Origin: an uncultured Candidatus Saccharibacteria bacterium
GTDB taxonomy: Bacteria > Patescibacteriota > Minisyncoccia > Phycocordibacterales > G965230995
Length of the DNA: 64,000 nucleotides
Reading direction: 5' to 3'
Assembly: GCA_965230995.1 (NCBI GenBank)
Contig: OZ246398.1
Span: forward strand, 592,213-656,212
In this document: piece by piece, positions 2,295-35,062 of the stretch
Numbering within the stretch: position 1 is the stretch's first letter
Layout of the letters: each line of letters starts with the position of its first letter
Made by a program: the position numbers and the translations under genes
Notes under the pieces: model-generated
What the model saw: only the letters and a program-made list of their open reading frames with translations
The model's database searches: none
What the model was told of the DNA's origin: nothing

Positions 2295-2813
2295 ATGCCT
2301 GAAAATTCAGAAAAAGAAACACATATTTATTCAGCTAAAAGTAATATAGCTGGAAAGGGATTATTTACTTCAAAATTTATTAAAAAAAATGAACTTGCTT
2401 TTGTTATGCAAGGACCAATTATTAATTACCACCCAATAAACAAAGAGGAGGCTTGCCAATTACCAAACATTGTTGGTATTGAGAAGGATAAATATATTGA
2501 CCCAATTGAACCGTATGTTTACATTAATCACTCTTGTGAACCAAACCTTGCATATATCGTTGTAGATAAAAAACCACATTTTTATGCTCTTAGAGATATA
2601 GATTTAGGAGAAGAACTTACCTTTGATTACTCTATTTCAGAATATTCAGATTGGGAAATGACATGTAGTTGTGGATCAAAAAAGTGTAGGAAGGTTATTA
2701 AATCTGTAGAAAAGCTTCCTGTCGATTTTTTTGAACAATATTTTCCTTTTATTCCAGAATTTTTTCAAAAGGTCTTTTTTAATAACTATATAAACGCAAA
2801 AGATGAAAAATAA
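2295..2813 (+). CDS. SET-domain protein (putative protein lysine methyltransferase).
   Basis: NHSCEPN and ELTFDY motifs, plus a post-SET CxCGSKKCRK. Confidence 0.75.
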   Translation: MPENSEKETHIYSAKSNIAGKGLFTSKFIKKNELAFVMQGPIINYHPINKEEACQLPNIVGIEKDKYIDPIEPYVYINHSCEPNLAYIVVDKKPHFYALRDIDLGEELTFDYSISEYSDWEMTCSCGSKKCRKVIKSVEKLPVDFFEQYFPFIPEFFQKVFFNNYINAKDEK

Positions 2814-3138
2814 CAAGTGGTTAAAATATACAATCGTCCTCGCGATATTTTTATTGGTATTTTGTCTTTCTTATTATTATCTTTCTCTCAAGAAAGATTT
2901 TTTTGTAATAATGAACGTCCCATGTGAGCAAGGTGATCCAGACGGTAATTGTTTTGTAAATGAAGATGATAACGGAGAAATTTTTCATTATAAGTTATTA
3001 AAAATAAAAGCAAGTGACATGCCAACATGCTCAGGATCTGAATGTGAATTTCCAAAGTGTGATAATGAGACTGCTGACTGTAGTTATGAATATTGTGAAG
3101 CTGGTAATGAGGATGGCTATATTTGCCTAGAAAAATAA
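2803..3138 (+). CDS. Small Cys-rich protein with an N-terminal TM or signal anchor.
   Basis: N-terminal hydrophobic helix followed by about ten Cys in an acidic domain. Sits between two SET genes. Confidence 0.45.
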   Translation: MKNNKWLKYTIVLAIFLLVFCLSYYYLSLKKDFFVIMNVPCEQGDPDGNCFVNEDDNGEIFHYKLLKIKASDMPTCSGSECEFPKCDNETADCSYEYCEAGNEDGYICLEK

Positions 3139-3139
3139 T

Positions 3140-3607
3140 ATGAAAAAGATTTTTTCTTCAAAAAGTAGCATAGATAAAAGCGGAATTTTTGCTGGAGAAA
3201 ATTTTAAAAAAGGGGAATTTGTAGTAAAATTAACTGGAAAATATATTAAATGGAAGTATAATGAAAAGACAGACAGACAAAAATGCGCTAACTGGTTCGG
3301 AATAAAAAAAGACCATTGGATTGATCCAGACTTTCCATTGTCACAGATTAATCATTCATGTGATCCGAACATCGGAATTAAAGGTAGAATTATGTTCTAT
3401 GCTTTGCGCGATATAGGAAAAGGAGAAGAACTAACTTTTGACTATTCTACAGCTGAGGAGGAATCGGATTGGCAGATGAAGTGTAAATGTAAGTCAAAAA
3501 AATGTAGGAAGTTTGTTACCTCAATAATGTTTCTGCCTGATAAGGTTTTTAGATCATATTTACCATTTATACCAACATATTTTAAAAAATTGTATTTTAA
3601 AAAGTAA
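3140..3607 (+). CDS. SET-domain protein, paralog of 2295-2813.
   Basis: NHSCDPN and ELTFDY motifs, plus CKCKSKKCRK. Confidence 0.75.
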   Translation: MKKIFSSKSSIDKSGIFAGENFKKGEFVVKLTGKYIKWKYNEKTDRQKCANWFGIKKDHWIDPDFPLSQINHSCDPNIGIKGRIMFYALRDIGKGEELTFDYSTAEEESDWQMKCKCKSKKCRKFVTSIMFLPDKVFRSYLPFIPTYFKKLYFKK

Positions 3608-3616
3608 ATAACAAAA

Positions 3617-5281
3617 ATGTTTGATTACCTTTCGTGCAATTGGGACAAAGCAAAGTACATGTTTTTTTCTGATAATGTATATGATCCATTAATCTATTAC
3701 TCTCACATTCTTCCGCTTGTTGTTTCGCTCCTTCTTGCTTTTTTTGTTTTTATAAATAACAGAAAAAGTAAAATTAATTTGTCTTTTTTTGTACTAAATA
3801 TATGTTTTTCAATTTGGGTTGGTTTTGATCTAATATTGTGGTCATCAGAAAAACCCGATTTAATAATGTTCTTTTGGTCAATAATTGTTCCAATAGAGTT
3901 ACTAGTCTTTACATTTTCAGTTATATTTAGTCAGGAATTTTTTAATCTAAAATTATTCAAGAAGGTTAATAAATATCTGATTCCGATATTATTTATCCCT
4001 ATATTATTATTTACTCATACTAAATTTAACCTTGTTGCATTTGATTACACGAATTGTGACAGAGGCGCAATAGAAGGTGTGTTAATTACCTATCTTTATG
4101 CTGTAGAAATTTTAATGTTTGTTATGTTGATTATTGATTTTGTATACACATCGTTTCGTAAAAATAATTTTATCGAAAAACGTGTTCATTTTATAGCATC
4201 ATTAGGAATTCTTATATTTTTAGGAATATTTATCGTCGGTAATCTGTCTCTTTTGAGTGACATGGACTGGAGATATGAACAATATAAATTGTTTGGAATG
4301 CCTATATTTCTTGCTGTGATATCTTTTCTTATTGTAAGGTTCAAAGCCTTTAACGTTAAATTGCTTGGTGCACAAGCGCTCGTTGTTGCTCTTGTAATAT
4401 TGATTGGTTCACAATTTTTGTTCATTAGAACAAACATAAATCGTGTACTTACTTCAGTTGCTCTTGTATTTACTGGCGCAATCGGCATAAGCCTCATTCG
4501 TTCTGTTAAAAAAGAAGTAAAGGCACGTGAAGAAATTGAAAAAAGAGAAAAACAGCTGGAGATTGTTAACAAACAGCTCGAAATTGCAAACGAAGGACAA
4601 TCGAATCTTCTTCACTTCATTACTCATCAGGTCAAGGGATATTTTACAAAGAGCCGAAACGTTTTTGCTGAATTAAAAACTGGCGAATACGGAAAGCTAC
4701 CAGATCAGGCAGAGACGATGATTTTTGAAGGCTTTCGTTCTGCGACCGAAGGTGTTGACCTTGTTCAAAATGTTCTAAACGCTGCAAATATTGATAGGGG
4801 AACAATGAAATACAACAAAGAAGATGTGGATTTGAAATCTATTTTAAGGGATGTCATTAGACAAAAAGAAACTTCTGCAACAGAAAAAGGTCTTTCAATT
4901 AAAACAAATATAGGCGATGGGAATTTCAACATTCACGGTGACTCTCTTCAGCTAAAAGAAGTTATGAAGAATTTAATTGAAAACGCAATCAGATATACTC
5001 TAAAGGGTGGTTTGGAAGTTAACTTGAGCATAAACGATCATATGATTTTGTTTTATGTAAAAGACACTGGTGTTGGTGTGTCTGCAGAAGATATGCCAAA
5101 GCTATTTAAAAAAGGTGGACACGGAACTGATTCAACGAAAATCAATCCAGAAAGTACCGGATACGGTCTATATATCGTAAAAGAAATTGTCGAAAAAGCC
5201 CACGGCGGTCGCGTCTGGGTAGAATCCGAAGGAAAAGGCAAGGGTTCAACATTCTTTGTGCAATTGCCAACAGGGAAATAA
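3617..5281 (+). CDS. Sensor histidine kinase with a polytopic N-terminal membrane domain.
   Basis: About 7-8 TM segments. H-box ITHQVKG, N-box LIENAIRYT, G-boxes DTGVGV and GYGLYIVKE. Confidence 0.8.
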   Translation: MFDYLSCNWDKAKYMFFSDNVYDPLIYYSHILPLVVSLLLAFFVFINNRKSKINLSFFVLNICFSIWVGFDLILWSSEKPDLIMFFWSIIVPIELLVFTFSVIFSQEFFNLKLFKKVNKYLIPILFIPILLFTHTKFNLVAFDYTNCDRGAIEGVLITYLYAVEILMFVMLIIDFVYTSFRKNNFIEKRVHFIASLGILIFLGIFIVGNLSLLSDMDWRYEQYKLFGMPIFLAVISFLIVRFKAFNVKLLGAQALVVALVILIGSQFLFIRTNINRVLTSVALVFTGAIGISLIRSVKKEVKAREEIEKREKQLEIVNKQLEIANEGQSNLLHFITHQVKGYFTKSRNVFAELKTGEYGKLPDQAETMIFEGFRSATEGVDLVQNVLNAANIDRGTMKYNKEDVDLKSILRDVIRQKETSATEKGLSIKTNIGDGNFNIHGDSLQLKEVMKNLIENAIRYTLKGGLEVNLSINDHMILFYVKDTGVGVSAEDMPKLFKKGGHGTDSTKINPESTGYGLYIVKEIVEKAHGGRVWVESEGKGKGSTFFVQLPTGK

Positions 5282-5389
5282 AATAGTGAGGAATTTAATC
5301 TTACGTATATGCAATCATTTTTGCTACAAAATATTATTAAATATATAATATAGTAGGCAAGGCTCGTTCGGTGAAAGGAGGTGATCTAG

Positions 5390-5515
5390 ATGGGAAACAA
5401 AACTGGCAATCGCGGAACGCCAGTTCCAGGCACTGGGTCGAAATCGACTAAGAACGTCAACAAGTCGAGCGGCTCCAAACAGTCTGGTACTTCCAGCAAG
5501 TCGGTAAGGAAGTAA
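5390..5515 (+). CDS. Small basic Gly/Ser/Lys-rich peptide (41 aa), paralog of 8295-8444.
   Basis: AGGAGGTG SD 6 nt before the ATG. Peptide is MGNKTGNRGTPVPGTGSKS.... It shares N-x4-N-x-RG-x-PV-x-GTG with the second peptide while the DNA diverges at synonymous sites. It falls below the ORF-track length cut-off. Confidence 0.5.
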   Translation: MGNKTGNRGTPVPGTGSKSTKNVNKSSGSKQSGTSSKSVRK

Positions 5516-5521
5516 CATCCC

Positions 5522-6856
5522 TTGTCAGAGCCGACATACTCCAAGTCTAACCCTTGCTCTGGTGGCACCTTGCCACCAGTCTCTTTAATATCAAACATGA
5601 ATAACGAAGATAGACAATCTTTTAGTCAGACAAAACTAGAGAACGGTATCTCTATCTATTCTCATAGAATGGACATGCCGTTTTTTGAGTTGAGAATTAT
5701 AATCCAAGTTGGTAATGTTCATTCACATTCTAAAAATAAATATGGAGAAAATGGTATTGTACATCTGCTCGAACATTTGGTATTTAATAAATCTAAAAAA
5801 TATCCAGAAAAACACTCGTTTGAAAAAAAATTAGCTCAATATGCGGGCACCTTTAATGCAACTACATATGCTTGGCAAACAGAATTTATAATATACGGAC
5901 CAACAATTTATTTTAACGAACTTGTAGGTGGAGTAATAGACCATATTTTTTTTCCTGTGTTTGACAACGATGATATTCGTCACGAGTCAAAAATAATTTC
6001 AAATGAAAGGAATGAGAGAAAATATTATCCAGGACAAAATAGCATGTCTAAGTATATGTTTACGGAATGGATTAATGACGAATCATACAGCAAAAATCAA
6101 TTATTTGGTTCTGACGAGAATCTCTCTGAAATTGATTCAAGGCAATTATCATCATTTCACAATGAACACTATCTCCAAGATAATACAGAGATAATAATTG
6201 GTGGAAATTTTAATATAGATTTTTTAATTAATCAGCTTCAAAATATTGGAACAAAAAAATCTAATCTTGTAGCAAATTGCAGTCCGACAAAATGGAAGAA
6301 AAAAGAATTTCATACTCATACAGATAAGGATACTGACATGCCACTTTGGGTTATTGGTGGAATTATTGAAAAAAGTAGTCCAAGTGAAAGAGTTTGTTTT
6401 GATGTACTACATAACTATTTAACAAACGAAAAGCACGGCCCAATTTATGATTGGCTTAGAAAAGAAAAAGGTTGGATCTATGGTATGGATTTTGGTTCAA
6501 ATTTTGATGCCAAAAGATTTCTTTGGCACGCAACGATACCTTTTGCTAATCAAAATGACATAGTCATAGCAAGAAAAGATTTTGATAATAAAATTATTGA
6601 TGCAATTTGTGATCAAAACAGAATTGAGATTGAAATCAACAGGCAACTAGCAGAAAGGGTTTTCTTTTATCAGACATTGGGTAGTCGCATGGACACAGCA
6701 TCATATTCTTTGTTTGCAAATAAAAAAATTATTACTGAGTCTGAGTATGTATCTTATATCGAAAGTTGTAGATCAAAAAAAATTTTACTTGATATTTATA
6801 AAAAGTACTTATCACCAGAAGTTAGGAGTGATTTTATCACTATTTCAGAAAAATAA
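5522..6856 (+). CDS. M16-family (pitrilysin/insulinase-like) zinc peptidase.
   Basis: Inverted zinc motif HLLEHLVF (HxxEH) followed by YAGTFNATTYAWQTEF. The real start may be the internal Met near 5597. Confidence 0.75.
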   Translation: MSEPTYSKSNPCSGGTLPPVSLISNMNNEDRQSFSQTKLENGISIYSHRMDMPFFELRIIIQVGNVHSHSKNKYGENGIVHLLEHLVFNKSKKYPEKHSFEKKLAQYAGTFNATTYAWQTEFIIYGPTIYFNELVGGVIDHIFFPVFDNDDIRHESKIISNERNERKYYPGQNSMSKYMFTEWINDESYSKNQLFGSDENLSEIDSRQLSSFHNEHYLQDNTEIIIGGNFNIDFLINQLQNIGTKKSNLVANCSPTKWKKKEFHTHTDKDTDMPLWVIGGIIEKSSPSERVCFDVLHNYLTNEKHGPIYDWLRKEKGWIYGMDFGSNFDAKRFLWHATIPFANQNDIVIARKDFDNKIIDAICDQNRIEIEINRQLAERVFFYQTLGSRMDTASYSLFANKKIITESEYVSYIESCRSKKILLDIYKKYLSPEVRSDFITISEK

Positions 6857-6904
6857 TCCATGTGGATAACCGAGGGGAAATGGGTGTGGTAGAATTCCTC
6901 GGGT

Positions 6905-7768
6905 ATGGAAACAAATATTTTTGGATATTTAGCAGTACTGGCTTTCGTAATGGTAGCAAGTGGCGCATTTTTTAAAAGAAAGATCGTTAGGCTCGAAAAA
7001 GAAGTTCACAATAAAGAAAAAGAATTGGAGTTGGCTTTGGTCAGAGTGAGGGAAGTTGATCAATTAAAAGACGACATTGTTTCTCTTGCGGCACATCAAA
7101 TCAGATCACCGCTTGTCGCCATTAGAGGCTACGCTTCAATGATAGCCGAGGGTGATTTTGGAAATGTTGAAATGAATGTTCAAGACGCAATTCAGAGAAT
7201 TTCTGATTCGAGCAAGAATTTGATGAACATAGCAAATGAATTTCTCGATATTTCTCATATAGAAGAGGGGAGAATAAAATACAATCTAAAAGAATTTGAT
7301 TTAAAGCATACTCTAACTAGAATCTGCGAAAAATATGAAAAGAGGATAAAAGAAAAAGGTCTTGATTTTAGTTTTGATTATGAAAAAAATCTTGATTACA
7401 TGGTTTTTGCAGATAGAGAAAAAATAAAAAGAATAATACAAACAGTTGTTGAAAACGCCATTAGATATACTCGTGAAGGGAAAATAAAAGTCTCGCTATC
7501 CTCTGGTAATGGAAAAGCAATTGTTTCTGTCACTGACACTGGAATTGGTATTAGCAAAAAGGATAGCAATAGGATTTTCCATAGATTTGCAAGGACAAGT
7601 AATGCCAGCAGAATAGATACAACAGGAACTGGAATCGAGCTCTATATCGCAAAAGAGATGCTTCACGCTCAGGGCGGGCATATTTACGCCATATCAGAAG
7701 GTTCAAACAAGGGATCAACATTTGTGATTGAAATAAAGCTTGCAAGTAATATCGGTAGCCAAAAATAG
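6905..7768 (+). CDS. Sensor histidine kinase (single TM, coiled coil, HisKA plus HATPase_c).
   Basis: LAAHQIRSPL H-box, VENAIRYT, DTGIGI, GTGIELYIAKE. Confidence 0.8.
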   Translation: METNIFGYLAVLAFVMVASGAFFKRKIVRLEKEVHNKEKELELALVRVREVDQLKDDIVSLAAHQIRSPLVAIRGYASMIAEGDFGNVEMNVQDAIQRISDSSKNLMNIANEFLDISHIEEGRIKYNLKEFDLKHTLTRICEKYEKRIKEKGLDFSFDYEKNLDYMVFADREKIKRIIQTVVENAIRYTREGKIKVSLSSGNGKAIVSVTDTGIGISKKDSNRIFHRFARTSNASRIDTTGTGIELYIAKEMLHAQGGHIYAISEGSNKGSTFVIEIKLASNIGSQK

Positions 7769-7792
7769 AGTCTTTCTGATATAATTATCCAA

Positions 7793-8233
7793 ATGAAAAA
7801 GGACTATTCGTTTGGAATCATCCCCTTCTGTAAAAAAGAAGAGGAGGCTTTATTTTTAATTGTTAAACATTTTGCGGGTCACTGGGGTTTTCCCAAGGGC
7901 CACAGAGAAGGGAACGAGACTGATATCGAAACAGCAAAAAGGGAATTTTGTGAGGAAACTGGAATATGCGAATTTCAAATAATTTCTGAAAAACCTTTTG
8001 TTACCGAGACATATAAAACACATCATCCGGTATTAAAGGATATGGAGAAAACTGTCTGCTATTACCTAGCAGAAGTTTTTAATGAAAAAGTTTGTTTACC
8101 AGAAGAAGAAATAGTTGATGCAAAATGGTGTGGTGTGTCTATTGCAGAAGAGACTTTGACGCACGAAAGGACTAGAGAAATACTACGCGATGCACACAAA
8201 CACCTTGTTGATAGCGGTGTTATTGATTTATAA
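7793..8233 (+). CDS. NUDIX hydrolase.
   Basis: Nudix box GHWGFPKGHREGNETDIETAKREFCEETG. Confidence 0.75.
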   Translation: MKKDYSFGIIPFCKKEEEALFLIVKHFAGHWGFPKGHREGNETDIETAKREFCEETGICEFQIISEKPFVTETYKTHHPVLKDMEKTVCYYLAEVFNEKVCLPEEEIVDAKWCGVSIAEETLTHERTREILRDAHKHLVDSGVIDL

Positions 8234-8294
8234 TTTATTTGTGGTATATTAAAAAAGGAGTCGACAACAACCAACCCGGAAAGGAGGTAAGAAA

Positions 8295-8444
8295 ATGTCG
8301 AACGTAAAAAGTTCTAATGGCAGGGGTAAACCTGTCGCCGGCACGGGAAGATGTAAACCATCAACCCACGGCAAGAAAAGATACTGGCGAGACCACTGTG
8401 GCCCTTACAAGCCCAGAGCTCCCAAGCATAATCATAATGCTTGA
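8295..8444 (+). CDS. Small basic peptide (49 aa), paralog of 5390-5515.
   Basis: AAGGAGGT SD at 8281-8288. Peptide is MSNVKSSNGRGKPVAGTGRCKPSTHGKKRYWRDHCGPYKPRAPKHNHNA. GC-rich patch. Confidence 0.5.
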   Translation: MSNVKSSNGRGKPVAGTGRCKPSTHGKKRYWRDHCGPYKPRAPKHNHNA

Positions 8445-8499
8445 TATTTGTGCTTATAATGATTGAGTAAGATTTACATCATCATTTCAACATCAACCC

Positions 8500-8519
8500 G
8501 GCGCCGTTTCCACGGCGCC
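8500..8519 (+). promoter_or_regulatory. Perfect 7-bp GC hairpin (ggcgccg-N6-cggcgcc) immediately upstream of the methyltransferase start.
   Basis: Inverted repeat with no following T-run. Possible attenuator or RBS-occluding structure. Confidence 0.3.
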
Positions 8520-8529
8520 ACAACCATAT

Positions 8530-9219
8530 ATGGAGAACCAATTCGACAAATGGGAAAACGAATACAGAAATCCTGTATTCCTCACAAAAGATGAAAAGCC
8601 ACAGTCAGACACTGTAAAATTTTTTCGTTTTCTAAAGAAAAATAAAATTGATTTAAATAATAAAACATTGATGGATATTGGATCCGGTACTGGTAGAAAT
8701 GGTAATTTTTTCGCAGAAAAGGGTGTGATTGTAACCGGAATTGAATTATCGAAAACCGCTGTATCTATTGCAAACGAAAGATCAAGAAATTTTAATTTAA
8801 ACGCAAAATATATTCTCGGAAGTATTGGAGAAACTTTTCCCTTTGAAAATGACAAATTTGATATTGCGCTGGATGTAATGTCTTCTAATTCGCTTTCAGA
8901 ACAAGAAAGAGAAATTTTTGTAAAGGAACTCCTCCGTGTTTTAAAAAAAGATGCTTTTGTATATATAAAAGCACACTCTAAGGATGGAGATAAAAATGCC
9001 AAAGAATTATTAAAGAAATTTCCAGGCAAAGAAAAAGACACCTACACAATGCCTCAGACTGGAATCACAGAAAGAGTTTTTACTGAAAAAGATTTTATAG
9101 ATACATACACAAAAGGATTCAAAATTTTAAAATTGGATAAAAAATCAAACTATTTTGGAATAGGAGATAGAAAATATAAAAGAAACTATTTTGTTTGCTA
9201 TATGCAAAAGATTGGCTAA
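8530..9219 (+). CDS. Class I SAM-dependent methyltransferase.
   Basis: Motif I LMDIGSGTGRNG and a Rossmann-type MTase layout. Confidence 0.7.
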   Translation: MENQFDKWENEYRNPVFLTKDEKPQSDTVKFFRFLKKNKIDLNNKTLMDIGSGTGRNGNFFAEKGVIVTGIELSKTAVSIANERSRNFNLNAKYILGSIGETFPFENDKFDIALDVMSSNSLSEQEREIFVKELLRVLKKDAFVYIKAHSKDGDKNAKELLKKFPGKEKDTYTMPQTGITERVFTEKDFIDTYTKGFKILKLDKKSNYFGIGDRKYKRNYFVCYMQKIG

Positions 9220-10787: not shown

Positions 10788-10859
10788 ATATTTTAGGTAA
10801 TGTTTAACCCCGCTCCAGCAACCTGGCGGGCGGGGTCTAGGTTCGTGTTGAACCGGGAA

Positions 10860-11105
10860 TCAGTGGCGGAATGGGGGTTCGTTCTCCCACGTTTGCTGGC
10901 TGCGTTTGAGGTGTTCCGATTGGGCACGGAAGTAGGTCACATTGTCAGTTCCGGCATCGGACTCCTTGGTTGTGGGTTCACCCGTTTTGAGCTCTGTGGC
11001 AGCCTTGACTGCCGCCGCAACAAGCATCTGGTTGAAATCAGGGTCACCTGTGACGAGAACTGTGGTACTCATCGTGTCATCCGTGACGAGGACTGTGGTG
11101 CTCAT
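10860..11105 (-). CDS. Hypothetical small protein (81 aa) with an N-terminal tandem repeat, in a GC-rich patch.
   Basis: AAGGGGGTG SD before the start. MSTTVLVTDDT/MSTTVLVTGDP duplication. A GC-rich bidirectional hairpin follows at 10805-10835. Confidence 0.35.
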   Translation of the reverse strand: MSTTVLVTDDTMSTTVLVTGDPDFNQMLVAAAVKAATELKTGEPTTKESDAGTDNVTYFRAQSEHLKRSQQTWENEPPFRH

Positions 11106-11172
11106 AGTGCCACCCCCTTCTTTTCTTAATACAAATTAGCATAAAAATTGCACATTTGCTAGAATTAGCAAT

Positions 11173-12899: not shown

Positions 12900-13266
12900 A
12901 TAATAAAAGAGTTTGCTTTCGGACTGTGTTAGTGGTATTTTATATACAAAGCAATGAAGCTGAAAACACAGCTGAGCTGAGGGAAGAACCGATACTACTG
13001 TCCGCCCAAGGCGGATTACGAAGTATCGTAATAGACCCCTACGGTAGCGCCCGTCACGCGCATTGGTTCGCCGTAACAGTGATCTGTGTAGGTGACCATT
13101 GGTTCGCCGAAGCATTGCGAAGGCGACCCTGATAAGCTTTGACCGCCTGCGTTATTAAACTTTGGCGAGTCGAGGGAAGCAAGGTGGCACCGCGTCGTAA
13201 AGAACGCCCTTGCACGGAAGCGATTATTCGTTTTTGTGCAAGGGTGTTTTTATTTTATCCTCACAA
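12900..13266 (+). promoter_or_regulatory. T-box riboswitch leader controlling aspS.
   Basis: T-box consensus AAGGUGGCACCGCG at 13181-13194 (UGGC implies a discriminator G). It overlaps an antiterminator/terminator pair, cccttgcac...gtgcaaggg plus U-run, at 13207-13266. The GC-rich structured upstream region contains a GAC triplet in a candidate specifier loop. Confidence 0.7.
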
Positions 13267-13298
13267 AAATTCGCTCCATTATCAGTAATTATAAGAAC

Positions 13299-14699
13299 AT
13301 GCAAAGAACATATATTGGTTCCCTCGGGGAACAAAAAGGACAGGAAGTCACCATCAAGGGATGGGTAGATGTCCGTCGCGATCAAGGAAAATTAATTTTC
13401 TTTGATTTTCGTGATATGACCGGATATGTGCAGGGTGTTGTTTTACCAAAATCTCCGGCAATGGAGAAAGCGGGAGAGCTCCGTCCTGAGTGGGTAGTAG
13501 AGATTAAAGGCAAGGTCAATCCAAGGCCTGAAAAAAATGTTCAAGCCGAAAAACAGAACGGTGATATTGAACTTGAAATATTAGATATAAATGTTTTGAA
13601 CAAATCAGAAGCATTGCCAATAGATATTTACGGCGACGGAAAAGAAATCAATGAAGAAGTCAGATTAAAATACAGGTACTTGGATATGCGACGCCCAAGA
13701 CTTCAGAGAATCTTTAGAAATAGACACAAAATTCAACAAGAGACACGTAATTTCTTTACAAAGGAAGGCTTTGTCGAGGTTGAAACTCCAATGATGACAA
13801 GATCTACTCCGGAAGGATCACGTGACTATGTTGTGCCTTCAAGACTAGAGCAGGGAAAGTTTTATGCTCTCCCACAGTCACCTCAGCAATACAAACAGCT
13901 TCTTATGGCTGGTGGTATGGAAAAATATTTTCAATTCGCGAGATGTTTTCGTGACGAAGATACAAGAGGCGACAGACAGCCAGAATTCACACAGATGGAC
14001 TTGGAAATGAGCTTTGTTGAACAAGAAGACGTGATGGCAATAAACGAAAAGGCGCTCATTCATATAGTAAAGACTCTGTATCCACACAAAAAATTCCAGG
14101 AATTACCTTTTCCAAGAATGACCTACAAGGAAGCAATGGAAAAGTATGGAAGCGACAAGCCAGATATCAGAAAAGACAAAAATGATCCAGACTTGCTCGC
14201 ATTTCTTTGGGTTGTAGATTTTCCTTTCTTTGAAAAGGATGATACTAGTCCTTCAGGTTGGACATTCACACACAACCCATTCTCAAGACCAAAGCCAGAA
14301 CATATGGATATGCTCATGAAAAAAGAAAACATTGGCGATATTTTAACCACTCAATATGACATCACATTGAACGGCTATGAGATTGGTGGGGGAAGTATTA
14401 GAAACCACGAACCAGAAGCTCTGAAAAAAGTTTTTGAAGTTATGGGCTACGAAGACACTCGTATTGAAAACAACTTTGGACATATGCTCAAAGCATTCAA
14501 AATGGGCACACCTCCACACGGTGGAATAGCGTGGGGATTTGATAGATTCCTTATGCTCCTTGAATGTGAGCCAAATATCCGCGAAGTAATTCCATTTGCC
14601 AAAACAGGCGAGGGCAAGGACCCAATGATGGAATCTCCGGCAGATATCAGAGAAGAACAACTGCTCGAATTAGGTATTACAGTTAAAAAGAAGAAATAA
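13299..14699 (+). CDS. aspS: Aspartyl-tRNA synthetase (class II, short form).
   Basis: OB domain. Motifs FQFARCFRDED, QMDLEMSF and GGGSIRNH. Start chosen downstream of the T-box terminator; the ORF-track start at 13236 overlaps the leader. Confidence 0.85.
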   Translation: MQRTYIGSLGEQKGQEVTIKGWVDVRRDQGKLIFFDFRDMTGYVQGVVLPKSPAMEKAGELRPEWVVEIKGKVNPRPEKNVQAEKQNGDIELEILDINVLNKSEALPIDIYGDGKEINEEVRLKYRYLDMRRPRLQRIFRNRHKIQQETRNFFTKEGFVEVETPMMTRSTPEGSRDYVVPSRLEQGKFYALPQSPQQYKQLLMAGGMEKYFQFARCFRDEDTRGDRQPEFTQMDLEMSFVEQEDVMAINEKALIHIVKTLYPHKKFQELPFPRMTYKEAMEKYGSDKPDIRKDKNDPDLLAFLWVVDFPFFEKDDTSPSGWTFTHNPFSRPKPEHMDMLMKKENIGDILTTQYDITLNGYEIGGGSIRNHEPEALKKVFEVMGYEDTRIENNFGHMLKAFKMGTPPHGGIAWGFDRFLMLLECEPNIREVIPFAKTGEGKDPMMESPADIREEQLLELGITVKKKK

Positions 14700-22599: not shown

Positions 22600-23040
22600 T
22601 TAGTGTTGCAAGCACTTTCTTCCACCTCGAATGTAGCAGTTGTGATTGCCGTCATGACCAGAGACGAGGATCTGTACAACCTCACTCAAGAATGTACAGA
22701 AGCCCTCTGCGGATTGCACCGACTGCCCTCTCCATTCGATAACACCACCCGAAAAGAGCTTGATGTTATCTACCACGATTGAACGTCGAGAAAAGTCACC
22801 AGCATCAGACTCTCTTTCAATCAAGACCTCCTCGACACGGCAAATGCAAAGAGTCATTGATGGCGCATCGAAGATTCCTGGTTCCTCAGTATCACCGAGA
22901 AACCAGTTAAGGTCAGAAAGTGTCTTGCAGTGACGCATCCCATTAGACTCGATCGCCTTCACGATTCGAAGGGTTGAACTGGTCGCACCGACAAGAAGCT
23001 CAAGTGAAGCATCTTTTCTAACGATGTTGATTTCCATCAC
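22600..23040 (-). CDS. Hypothetical protein in a GC-rich island.
   Basis: GGGAG SD before a GTG/ATG start. No recognisable motifs. Confidence 0.45.
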   Translation of the reverse strand: MMEINIVRKDASLELLVGATSSTLRIVKAIESNGMRHCKTLSDLNWFLGDTEEPGIFDAPSMTLCICRVEEVLIERESDAGDFSRRSIVVDNIKLFSGGVIEWRGQSVQSAEGFCTFLSEVVQILVSGHDGNHNCYIRGGRKCLQH

Positions 23041-23256
23041 GTTAATGTCTCCCTTTGGGGGTATGGAGAAGTTTCAAGGTTCAGAACAAGAAGCTAGGAG
23101 ATATCCAAGACCTAATTATACACCCACCAGAATTTTATACAATCAATTAAAAGAATGGGGCTTCCTTCGCAATATATAACAAAACAATAAGGCCCGAGGG
23201 CGGCCTTATTGCCGACACTCGGGTCGTTGGTTGCCAATAGATATTGGCCCCTCTAC

Positions 23257-23589
23257 CTATGCAATCCGACTGCCTCGCTTCCTCGCCCCGAATCTAATAA
23301 CGGGCGGAAGCCCCTTTCTAAGGTCTGTGATGACCTTTCGAGACACGAGTGCCCTGAAAGCACAGTAGCCGACTGCTGTAAGTTGCAAAACAAAAAACAA
23401 GGCACAAATAATACTGATGATGATACCGTCCTCGATCTGAACAAAGACGTAGTACCAGTATCCGATAAAGACGAGTGTCTGTACATCAACGGATACCTCA
23501 GAAAGACGGCGCCGAAAGATAAAAACAAAACAGTACCAAGCCGCCACCGCAAGTGTCACGAAGGGTTGCAGAAGGATGTCGTTCAACAT
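23257..23589 (-). CDS. Small 3-TM membrane protein (holin-like size).
   Basis: AAGGAG SD 8 nt before the ATG (MLNDILL...). Three hydrophobic helices. The opposite-strand ORF 23209-23628 was judged spurious. Confidence 0.5.
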   Translation of the reverse strand: MLNDILLQPFVTLAVAAWYCFVFIFRRRLSEVSVDVQTLVFIGYWYYVFVQIEDGIIISIICALFFVLQLTAVGYCAFRALVSRKVITDLRKGLPPVIRFGARKRGSRIA

Positions 23590-23643
23590 GGCAAGGTTCT
23601 CCTTGGTTACAAAAGTACAATACAATAAATCAAGACAAAAAAC

Positions 23644-33299: not shown

Positions 33300-33560
33300 T
33301 CAGTTGAGGTGTTTGGAATCGTAGATCTCCTTGCTTTTAGCGAGAAAGAGATTCCTCAAATCACCCAGAACTGCCAGAAACTTGGGGTAGGCTTCGGGAT
33401 GACGAGGCGAGATGTAAACAGAGACGTTTACACCAACACCGTTGCGAGAGAGTTCGAACCGAAGACCTTCGATTCGAAGATTCTTCATCACCATCTCGAC
33501 AGCACACAAAGAGACCATCTCCTCGACAGAAAACACGTGATCAGCATTGCGAGTACACAT
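33300..33560 (-). CDS. Hypothetical small protein (86 aa) in a GC-rich island.
   Basis: GGAGGGGG SD 6 nt before the ATG (MCTRNADHVF...). A TTTCCA-aagc-TGGAAA palindrome lies upstream. Confidence 0.4.
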   Translation of the reverse strand: MCTRNADHVFSVEEMVSLCAVEMVMKNLRIEGLRFELSRNGVGVNVSVYISPRHPEAYPKFLAVLGDLRNLFLAKSKEIYDSKHLN

Positions 33561-33812
33561 CTCGGCCCCCTCCGTTAAAGAACTAGTTTCCAGAATCACC
33601 ATGACTCTGGAAACTAGGAGCAAATATTGCGCATAATTTCCAAAGCTGGAAACAGAAAGTCCCCTTTCGGGGACTTTCTTTACGCAATTAACGATTTTTA
33701 GACTATTTCAGTTTTTGCATACAAAGAAAGCTCCCGAAGGGGATTCCCAGCAGCAGACCCAAAACTGAAATATTTAACTTCATAAATTAATAATATCAAC
33801 TAAATGTTTGCT

Positions 33813-33856: not shown

Positions 33857-34051
33857 TCAGGGCTGACGGAGTGAAAAAGTGCCATCGGGCAACTTCACCA
33901 CACCAGCCTTCTCCATACCCAAATTGAACCACCTCCTCGCAAGCTGTTGGTCCTCCGCAGGCATTTTCGGAATGGAAGGACCATTTTGAAATGCCAAGAA
34001 AATCCGATTAGGATCAGGAGAACCGACTTGCACTACAGTTTGTTCGCTCAT
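33857..34051 (-). CDS. Hypothetical small protein (64 aa), co-regulated with the PDT-like gene.
   Basis: GTGGAGG SD 6 nt before ATG (MSEQTVVQ...). GC-rich. Own copy of the conserved upstream operator. Confidence 0.45.
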   Translation of the reverse strand: MSEQTVVQVGSPDPNRIFLAFQNGPSIPKMPAEDQQLARRWFNLGMEKAGVVKLPDGTFSLRQP

Positions 34052-34210: not shown

Positions 34211-35062
34211 TCAGTCCCTCACCTCAAAGGGACCAAAGATTTGGTTTTTTGTCACACACAAAGAGAAGAGCTTGCGAGCAATACGAAACCTCCACAGAGC
34301 ACTCCGCTTCATCTCGACTTCGACGCCGAAATGATACGTGCCGTTCTCGATATGAACAGAATGAATCTGCGTCATATTAATCCCGAGAAGCACAAGCGGA
34401 GTGAGAGCAAGCCACAGAGCCCCAGGTATGTTGTGTACCTGGAACGTGAGCACTGCTCTGTTCGTCTTGCCCACCGCCCCAGACACACCACCCGGTGCAA
34501 GCAGGTAGAATGTCGTGACGGCCGGTTCGTCTTCGAATCCCTCGATGAGGACATCGAGACCATAGACCTGGGCGTTCGCAACCGGCCCGAGACAAGCCCA
34601 GTTCTGGTAGCTTTCGTCCTCGGCTACCAATCTCGATGCTTCGCCATTGCTCGGAACCTCCATCGTTTTGACTTGAAGACTACCGACCTTCGCCTTGCAT
34701 GCACCAAAGGACTTTTGATGCCCGATGATGCCAGCGACCTGCTCGATACTCATACCCTTCCTCGCCATCAAGGCAAAAGTAATGGGCATTTTGTATCCAG
34801 CAACGATCGCAGGTACACTGCCCGTGCGAAGAAGAGCGATAAGCGCATCGAGAGACTCGGTCACGCGACCCTGAGCCAGAGTCTCGACAGCAAGAGCGCC
34901 CCAAGCCGATTTCGTCATCACCACAGACACAACATCACCATTTCTGGCAGTCGGAATGTAGTTTCGATCGGAAACAGCAGGAGCCCCAAAGTTCTGGACG
35001 AAGTACTCATATGCTACATGAGTAAACGTAGAACCAAACGGCCCGAGATAAGTAACATTCAT
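34211..35062 (-). CDS. pheA: Prephenate dehydratase-like protein (PDT domain plus C-terminal ACT domain).
   Basis: N-terminal VTYLGPFGSTFTHVAY, a TTF motif corresponding to the catalytic TRF, and an ACT-like C-terminus with the ESRP motif diverged. GC-rich. Confidence 0.6.
   Translation of the reverse strand: MNVTYLGPFGSTFTHVAYEYFVQNFGAPAVSDRNYIPTARNGDVVSVVMTKSAWGALAVETLAQGRVTESLDALIALLRTGSVPAIVAGYKMPITFALMARKGMSIEQVAGIIGHQKSFGACKAKVGSLQVKTMEVPSNGEASRLVAEDESYQNWACLGPVANAQVYGLDVLIEGFEDEPAVTTFYLLAPGGVSGAVGKTNRAVLTFQVHNIPGALWLALTPLVLLGINMTQIHSVHIENGTYHFGVEVEMKRSALWRFRIARKLFSLCVTKNQIFGPFEVRD

Follow-up and report, generated by a model that had tools for sequence, protein, structure and literature searches.

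Two very short open reading frames (ORFs) in the genome of an uncultured Candidatus Saccharibacteria bacterium raise the question of whether they encode peptides and, if so, whether those peptides have anything to do with the peptidase, methyltransferase and sensor kinase genes around them. The ORFs, here called pep1 and pep2, lie in a 64-kb stretch (contig OZ246398.1, positions 592,213 to 656,212; hereafter the window), which is part of a 742,714-bp NCBI contig and has an overall GC content of 36.5%. A first-pass annotation, made from the letters alone, had proposed either a peptide maturation and sensing module or a new family of small basic proteins. The analysis described below shows that pep1 and pep2 code for proteins and belong to a microprotein family that had not been described before, each forming an autonomous cassette, and that the adjacency of pep1 to an M16 peptidase gene recurs over a large evolutionary distance. 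It leads us to favour, tentatively, a reading in which the peptides are substrates of that peptidase.

Both ORFs were found at the coordinates first reported, on the forward strand. At 5390-5515, pep1 encodes a 41-aa microprotein (MGNKTGNRGTPVPGTGSKSTKNVNKSSGSKQSGTSSKSVRK) with a net charge of +9, an isoelectric point (pI) of 12 and no acidic residue; pep2, at 8295-8444, encodes a 49-aa microprotein (MSNVKSSNGRGKPVAGTGRCKPSTHGKKRYWRDHCGPYKPRAPKHNHNA) with a net charge of +11. Each was said to sit in a GC-rich patch, and the local GC content is indeed 0.50-0.53, versus 0.365 for the window as a whole, with the patch reaching into the untranslated regions. The claim of near-perfect Shine-Dalgarno (SD) sequences at ideal spacing likewise held: AAGGAGGT is found only twice in the 64 kb, counting both strands, at 5375-5382 and 8281-8288, and these two sites stand 7 and 6 nt 5' of the ATGs of pep1 and pep2, respectively. 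In pep1 the motif is part of an extended SD, AAAGGAGGTGATC (5374-5386, +), in which 13 nt are complementary to the canonical 3' tail of 16S rRNA, whose gene lies outside the window, and in pep2 it is part of AAAGGAGGT (8280-8288, +), with 9 complementary nt. Such sites are rare in this window: among 40 long genes, approximately 2 carry 5 nt or more of SD core. Many of its genes instead carry a TATAAT-like box 6-10 nt 5' of the ATG (for example, those starting at 2295, 7793, 16119, 17128, 27731 and 45904), which suggests leaderless or short-leader mRNAs.

The remaining signals complete the two cassettes. A promoter scan placed a sigma-70-like site, TTGCTA-17-TATAAT, upstream of pep1 (5321-5349, +; 10/12 consensus matches, the best within 5200-8700) and another, TTGATT-16-TATATT with a TG extension, upstream of pep2 (8223-8250, +). 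Downstream of pep1, a GC-rich hairpin of 9 pairs with a partial T-tract (5559-5579, +; z-score of the 3' region -3.5), a candidate terminator or attenuator, ends 17 nt before the ATG of the M16 gene. An AU-rich hairpin overlaps the pep2 stop codon and is followed by a T-rich tail (8423-8443, +), and a second, GC-rich hairpin without a T-tract, GGCGCCGT/ACGGCGCC (8499-8520, +; z = -3.6), lies 10 nt 5' of the methyltransferase ATG. The promoter scan found no promoter-like site in the gap between hairpin and M16 gene or in that between hairpin and methyltransferase gene.

Are these ORFs translated into products on which selection acts? The two peptides had been said to share an alignable N-terminus, and the shared block, RGxPVxGTG, proved to be specific to them: the pattern [RK]G.P[VIL].G[TS]G matches the six-frame translation of the window twice, both times inside pep1 and pep2, and never appeared when the sequence was shuffled 300 times with its local composition kept. 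Within this block, 6 of the 7 residues common to pep1 and pep2 are specified by different codons. An exhaustive HMMER search with a profile of both peptides against 1.84 billion representative proteins returned only two clusters at E<=1e-3, P0008 (42 aa) and P0007 (58 aa; E = 1.3e-4 for these matches). Both show 59% identity to pep1 and have in common with it PVxGTG and an invariant NVNKSSGSK block. A fifth member was found in a close relative (contig L014), so that the family comparison covered pep1 and pep2 of the window, P0008 (contig L003), P0007 (contig L009) and the L014 gene, from four known lineages. The relatives' loci are all on short contigs: L003-L008 for the P0008 lineage, L009 and L010 for the P0007 lineage, and L014, L017 and L019; no family member was present on the L017 and L019 contigs.

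Each pair of homologues has 24-25 residues in common, and for 13-17 of these the codons do not match; some serines even change from the TCN to the AGY set. The antisense frames are broken by stops in the other lineages (L003 and L009). Together, the codon divergence at identical residues and the antisense stops indicate that the peptide of the forward frame is under purifying selection, with synonymous sites near saturation. The earlier proposal that synonymous differences point to selection on the peptide, not on an RNA, is thus borne out. An RNA element was rejected on the same codon-level evidence and on the Rfam search, in which the GC-rich segments gave no match at the gathering score and only chance hits within 5200-8600 at an E-value threshold of E<=10. 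The whole transcripts fold with z-scores of -2.3 and -3.5, most of which comes from the terminal hairpins.

Stable 3' hairpins in an equivalent position were found in all five family members (z from -3.5 to -5.2), and complementarity to the 16S 3' tail extends over 9 nt in the L003 member, 11 nt in that of L009 and 8 nt in that of L014. The products are 41-58 aa long, with net charges of +8 to +13 and pI values of 10.8-12. They comprise an N-terminal module of 16-18 aa, which closes with an invariant [PT]-[VI]-x-G-T-G, and a C-terminal cationic tail, which the pep1 type keeps constant (NVNKSSGSK[QK]S) and which varies freely in the pep2 type. Conservation in the pep1 type is highest in the C-terminal NVNKSSGSK block, above that of the N-terminal module. 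Pep2-type products, in contrast, have unrelated C-terminal halves even in the window and its close relative: the 41-aa L014 product (MSQKKTKKGVTISGTGRRHKTARMNSWFKFQELLKRRTGKK; SD GGGAGGTGA) retains only the N-terminal module of pep2, with TIxGTGR, and ends in a tail, MNSWFKFQELLKRR, of amphipathic and cationic look. In pep1-type products, G, S, P, K, Q, E, N, T and R make up 84-90% of the residues, and pep1 itself has four hydrophobic residues. Across the family, hydrophobic and acidic residues are nearly absent, and the products are therefore probably disordered. AlphaFold2 gave zero secondary structure for pep1 (predicted template modelling score, pTM, 0.15) and a beta-hairpin of low confidence only for pep2.

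No match to the peptides was found in Pfam or NCBIfam (E<=1), PHROGs, PADLOC or the PDB chains (E<=10), and both are absent from a collection of 15 billion proteins. The proposal of a new small basic-protein family therefore stands, since homologues exist and the forward frame is selected. Several alternative identities were tried and rejected. Homology to bS21, Thx or bL33 has no Pfam, NCBIfam or PDB match behind it; tblastn with Thx and bS21 sequences stayed at chance level (Thx on pep2, E = 0.43), and a bL33 resemblance ('SAGTGH'-like) is backed by no profile or PDB search. The R-G-R-P core of an AT-hook is missing in most members, and an anti-phage or phage origin found no meaningful PADLOC or PHROGs match. 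On Logan contigs L001 and L002, which are 100% identical to the window across the shared region, a gene caller had called a 70-aa antisense ORF in place of the peptide ORF; this ORF was rejected as a true gene owing to the antisense stops in L003 and L009.

Other searches, in which the scans of whole collections were capped, added no member. In a word-indexed protein search, the family alignment returned P0007 and P0008 and nothing else, and pep2 gave no match. Scans of genome contigs with M16 and with the family alignment gave no match, the M16 scan missing even the source genome; a metagenome scan returned the loci already known and no further ones, and a scan of viral sequences found no family match. 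Peptides of this size come close to what a profile search can still detect and frequently go uncalled as genes, so that the true extent of the family may be far greater than the five members suggest.

We next consider what the neighbouring genes say about function. The gene after pep1 was predicted to encode an HxxEH peptidase, and Pfam identified it as an M16 zinc peptidase (5597-6856, +; PF00675 and PF05193) with an intact HLLEH motif. Its translation has no N-terminal hydrophobic stretch as judged by eye (no signal-peptide predictor was used), its score against the PqqF model TIGR02110 is 31 bits (cutoff 320), and no second M16 subunit or paralogue is encoded in the 64 kb. In the P0008 lineage, the peptide gene again lies directly upstream of an M16 gene, encoding a 437-aa protein, on six contigs (L003-L008). 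This M16 shows 24% identity to that of the window over 161 aa, and the remaining neighbours differ. The L009 contig stops 88 nt past the peptide gene; in both pep1-type lineages in which the downstream gene is visible, M16 adjoins the peptide gene. The adjacency is not obligatory for M16, as orthologues without an upstream peptide occur in L014 (44% identity), L017 (38%) and L019. In the window, pep1 and M16 also share a reading frame, with nothing but one TAA (5513-5515) and a run of 27 sense codons between them, and a TTG-start ORF from 5522 continues into M16. This is probably coincidence, because the frames differ in L003, and a read-through fusion was set aside.

M16 enzymes enclose peptides of less than approximately 70 aa and accept only short, unfolded ones. 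Two of them, the mitochondrial processing peptidase (MPP) and PreP, act on basic presequences without acidic residues. These properties, the recurrence of M16 beside the pep1 type, the lack of a promoter-like site in the 17- and 10-nt gaps between hairpin and enzyme gene, and a precursor-hairpin-enzyme layout like that of operons for peptides that are made on the ribosome and modified after translation (RiPPs) lead us to suggest that the peptides may be abundant cationic pro-peptides or turnover targets, serving as substrates of the adjacent chamber-type M16. This is the reading we prefer, at a confidence that falls somewhat short of even. Under it, a cassette of promoter, unusually long SD, ORF and GC-rich hairpin would be followed by an M16 or methyltransferase gene reached only by read-through past the hairpin. 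A strong cassette SD in an SD-poor host implies that the peptide should be made in large excess over the product of the downstream M16 or methyltransferase gene. The N-terminal module would act as the recognition or cleavage determinant, with maturation near the conserved GTG, or with turnover as the outcome, and the product would be the cationic stretch at the C-terminus.

Known systems resemble this arrangement in part. As in PqqA/PqqF-G, SboA/AlbE-F and the class III lanthipeptide proteases PttP1/P2, a very short ORF with strong signals and a hairpin precedes an M16 gene, and, as in precursor/M16 pairs of RiPP pathways, the N-terminal part is conserved, the C-terminal part differs between the two types and the size fits the M16 chamber. 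The MPP and PreP (M16B/M16C) substrates offer a possible second likeness: here too the candidate substrate is basic, hydroxyl-rich, 20-60 aa long and free of acidic residues, and the enzyme is an HxxEH M16 protein. Unlike those presequences, the family peptides are free-standing and are not N-terminal extensions, and they give no evidence of an R-2/R-3 cleavage motif.

A number of observations weigh against the peptides being M16 substrates. M16 proteases cut leaders in some RiPP pathways, which speaks for such a role, but they usually work as heteromeric pairs (PMC10885120), and the window holds a single M16. No exporter, immunity gene, RiPP recognition element (RRE) or conserved modifying enzyme was found among the annotated neighbours, there is no LSGGQ signature of an ABC transporter in the 64 kb, and the surroundings are housekeeping genes (aminoacyl-tRNA synthetases, ScpAB, MraY, FtsW and MurG). 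The RiPP comparison also suffers from the locus having no class-defining modifying enzyme or transporter, from the peptides being polycationic and free of Cys (pep1) or poor in it (pep2), and from the supposed pep1-type 'core' being more conserved than the supposed 'leader'. The M16 gene has native composition, with a GC content at third codon positions (GC3) of 0.22, and looks like a housekeeping gene, being present elsewhere without the peptide, whereas the peptide genes are compositionally foreign. With a hairpin between each peptide gene and the gene downstream, co-transcription of the two is putative. Only two independent adjacencies of peptide and M16 are known, and in L014 the slot of pep1, the gap between the first kinase gene and M16, holds genes for DUF6176, a 177-aa protein and DUF397, and no pep1. 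The DUF397-domain gene (1604-1816, - strand of L014) has a foreign-like GC3 of 0.71.

The other neighbours matter for the proposal of a RiPP or peptide-pheromone module, in which the methyltransferase would tailor the precursors, M16 would cleave them and the flanking kinases would sense them. Both kinases reported to bracket the locus were confirmed by Pfam: HK1 (3617-5281, +), a membrane histidine kinase with HATPase_c, lies upstream of pep1, although a link between the two is unsupported, and HK2 (6905-7768, +) has HisKA and HATPase_c. HK2 does not flank the locus, though; it lies between pep1 and pep2, between M16 and a NUDIX hydrolase gene (7793-8233, +; Pfam) that the first-pass annotation had omitted and that is directly upstream of pep2. 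The hairpin after pep2 and the class I S-adenosylmethionine (SAM) methyltransferase that follows it (8530-9219, +; Pfam Methyltransf_25/11/31) are as described, the latter belonging to a generic family and matching no NCBIfam model at its cutoff.

The relatives offer little for such a module. In L014, whose LysRS, TrpRS and M16 are 77%, 70% and 44% identical to those of the window, the order M16-HK-NUDIX-small ORF-hairpin-methyltransferase is kept; the small ORF is the family member noted above, in the slot between NUDIX and methyltransferase genes, and the hairpin before the methyltransferase is again GC-rich, in the same position but of different sequence. HK2 is 56% identical there and absent from L003, L006 and L017. 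Of HK1, L014 has a 75-aa C-terminal fragment only, and L003 and L009 have none; no kinase stands beside the homologues in L003 and L009, on which ground the peptides were also rejected as small-protein regulators of kinases. A NUDIX gene is also found downstream of M16 in L014, L017 and L006. The adjacencies of pep2 to the methyltransferase and of the peptides to the kinases have no support beyond the one syntenic relative, L014. A comparison of homologue neighbourhoods, which had been suggested as a check, came out in favour of M16, which again follows a pep1 homologue in the L003 lineage, and not of the methyltransferase.

Near two of the pep1 homologues, there are pairs of a small ORF and a radical SAM (rSAM) gene that recall RiPP loci. 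In L003 (763-2062; also in L004 and L006-L008), 1.2 kb from the pep1 homologue, a 47-aa ORF ending in DDWHWNDH (YNAHDDWHWNDH) is followed by an rSAM/SPASM protein that scores 211 bits with the dynobactin maturase model and 269 bits with the anaerobic sulfatase maturase model, both below the cutoffs; anaerobic sulfatase, dynobactin and cyclophane maturases are its best NCBIfam matches. The pair shares the leader AGAGAGGAGGTGAG and high GC3 with the L003 peptide gene, and the opposite strand of L003 encodes a 335-aa HExxH protein. In L009 (532-1814), a different, 52-aa ORF and a divergent rSAM gene are found at a distance of up to approximately 1.3 kb from the pep1 homologue. An rSAM as common maturase was rejected, since the L003 and L009 enzymes show no relationship, come with separate small ORFs and have no counterpart in the window.

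Such pairs, which also count in favour of the M16-substrate reading, the recurrence of M16 beside the pep1 type and the succession of precursor-like ORF, hairpin and enzyme gene speak for a RiPP or pheromone module. Against it, no response regulator is annotated from the ValRS gene to the M23 peptidase gene (45-21737), as the first-pass annotation had also noted for the vicinity, and neither a second M16 nor a conserved modifying enzyme is at hand, the methyltransferase being generic. The peptides are also without the E-x3-Y motif of PqqA, and the window has no PqqE-like rSAM gene. The maturation and sensing module proposed at first is therefore not upheld; we consider it very improbable and the least supported of the readings.

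If the peptides are not matured, could they act as they are made? The main rival to the M16-substrate reading makes them abundant microproteins that attach to ribosomes or nucleic acids, as disordered polycations with rRNA or DNA for a ligand. In its sharpest version, their site of action would be the 30S platform, close to the anti-SD (ASD), and the extended SD would provide autoregulation like that of rpsU, the gene for bS21. The high net charge and pI, few or no acidic residues, and a low-complexity sequence that is nevertheless under strong purifying selection are consistent with such a role, as are monocistronic cassettes with their own promoter-like site and hairpin, located among aminoacyl-tRNA synthetase and other housekeeping genes. 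The longest SDs of an SD-poor genome, kept in four lineages, also have a precedent: the single gene of Flavobacterium johnsoniae that has a strong SD is rpsU, whose product is the small basic protein bS21 and whose autoregulation runs through the ASD (PMC9976891, PMC13000453). Both bS21 and bL33 are frequently missing in lineages of the candidate phyla radiation (CPR; PMC9297842). The source genome itself looks CPR-like in size, GC content and gene content.

The likeness to rpsU in the SD-blind Bacteroidia, a small basic protein with an exceptionally long SD that is kept across relatives, is one of gene features and has limits. The peptides show no sequence resemblance to bS21, bL33 or Thx, nor to a PDB chain, and the strong SD is shared with other accessory genes, namely a membrane protein gene at 1632-2207 and the rSAM pairs of L003 and L009. 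The peptide genes have a foreign-like GC3 while the gene for ribosomal protein L9 is native. A ribosomal role also sits poorly with the absence of pep1 from its L014 slot and of any member from the L017 and L019 contigs, with the retrieval of just two clusters among 1.84e9 representatives, and with pep2-type C-terminal halves that are unrelated between close relatives. On balance, we regard polycations of this kind as unlikely, though worth keeping in view. A narrower combination, in which lineage-specific ribosome-associated microproteins of CPR-like bacteria that have lost small ribosomal proteins bind at or near the 16S 3' tail and are controlled by an autoregulatory loop through the 9-13 nt SD and M16 degrades the free peptide, is suggested by analogy and would be quite improbable.

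The composition of the genes bears on yet another possibility, that they are mobile accessory cassettes with no tie to M16, methyltransferase or kinases, encoding unprocessed cationic effector or antimicrobial peptides or being orphans in intergenic hot spots. GC3 is 0.61 in pep1 and 0.47 in pep2, versus 0.21-0.37 in native genes (L9, 0.29), which sets them with SD-led orphans and a prephenate dehydratase gene. This GC3-rich class (0.50-0.57) includes 1632-2207, 22600-23040, 23209-23628, 33300-33623, 33857-34051 and 34211-35062, several of them SD-led and without a Pfam match, and may have been acquired horizontally. The last of these, on the minus strand, is the prephenate dehydratase gene, and its opposite strand holds an equally long open ORF.

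Variable gaps point the same way. With pep1 in the window and three unrelated genes in L014, the gap between HK1 and M16 behaves as a variable insertion site, and the small ORFs found between LysRS and TrpRS are likewise unrelated in the window and L014. In the window, this second gap contains an 81-aa acidic ORF (10860-11105, -) in a GC-rich patch (10790-11140), with a GC3 of 0.64, an N-terminal duplication (MSTTVLVTDDT / MSTTVLVTGDP), an SD-like site, AAGGGGGTGG, and a GC hairpin after it; it has no family match in NCBIfam, PHROGs or PADLOC, and an unrelated 110-aa minus-strand ORF takes its place in L014. The amphipathic cationic look of the L014 tail would also suit an effector or antimicrobial peptide. 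However, the near-saturated synonymous sites between pep1 homologues mean that any transfer was ancient, and random insertion is unlikely to have put a peptide gene next to M16 in two lineages whose M16s are 24% identical. Neither a signal peptide nor an exporter was found, and the ORF lists contain no flanking repeats or integrase, although no dedicated repeat search was made. We judge unattached mobile cassettes to be decidedly unlikely.

Two further features of the window were noted. The GC-rich patch at 12945-13214 (+) is explained by a divergent T-box leader (32 bits, E = 8.6e-5; Rfam gathering score 93), with the T-box sequence GGTGGCACCGCG at 13183-13194; the leader precedes the gene for AspRS (13236-14699). 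At a distance of 2-3 kb upstream of pep1, which is rich in lysine, there are two paralogous genes with a SET domain (lysine methyltransferase-like), 2295-2813 and 3140-3607 (+), with a Cys-rich 111-aa ORF that has a hydrophobic N-terminal start (2803-3138) between them; the short contigs of the relatives showed no SET gene.

The pep1/pep2 family brings together saturated synonymous divergence, 59% peptide identity, the longest ribosome-binding sites of an SD-poor genome and a recurring M16 neighbour. It also illustrates how annotation systematically overlooks small proteins, since neither ORF was picked up by gene callers, one of which chose an antisense ORF in its place. Should the peptides act at the ribosome, the family would bear on how the anti-SD is used in SD-poor bacteria. 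If the link to M16 is true, this ultra-small-genome bacterium would possess a minimal peptide-processing pair, in which one M16 serves a precursor and a tailoring enzyme is absent.

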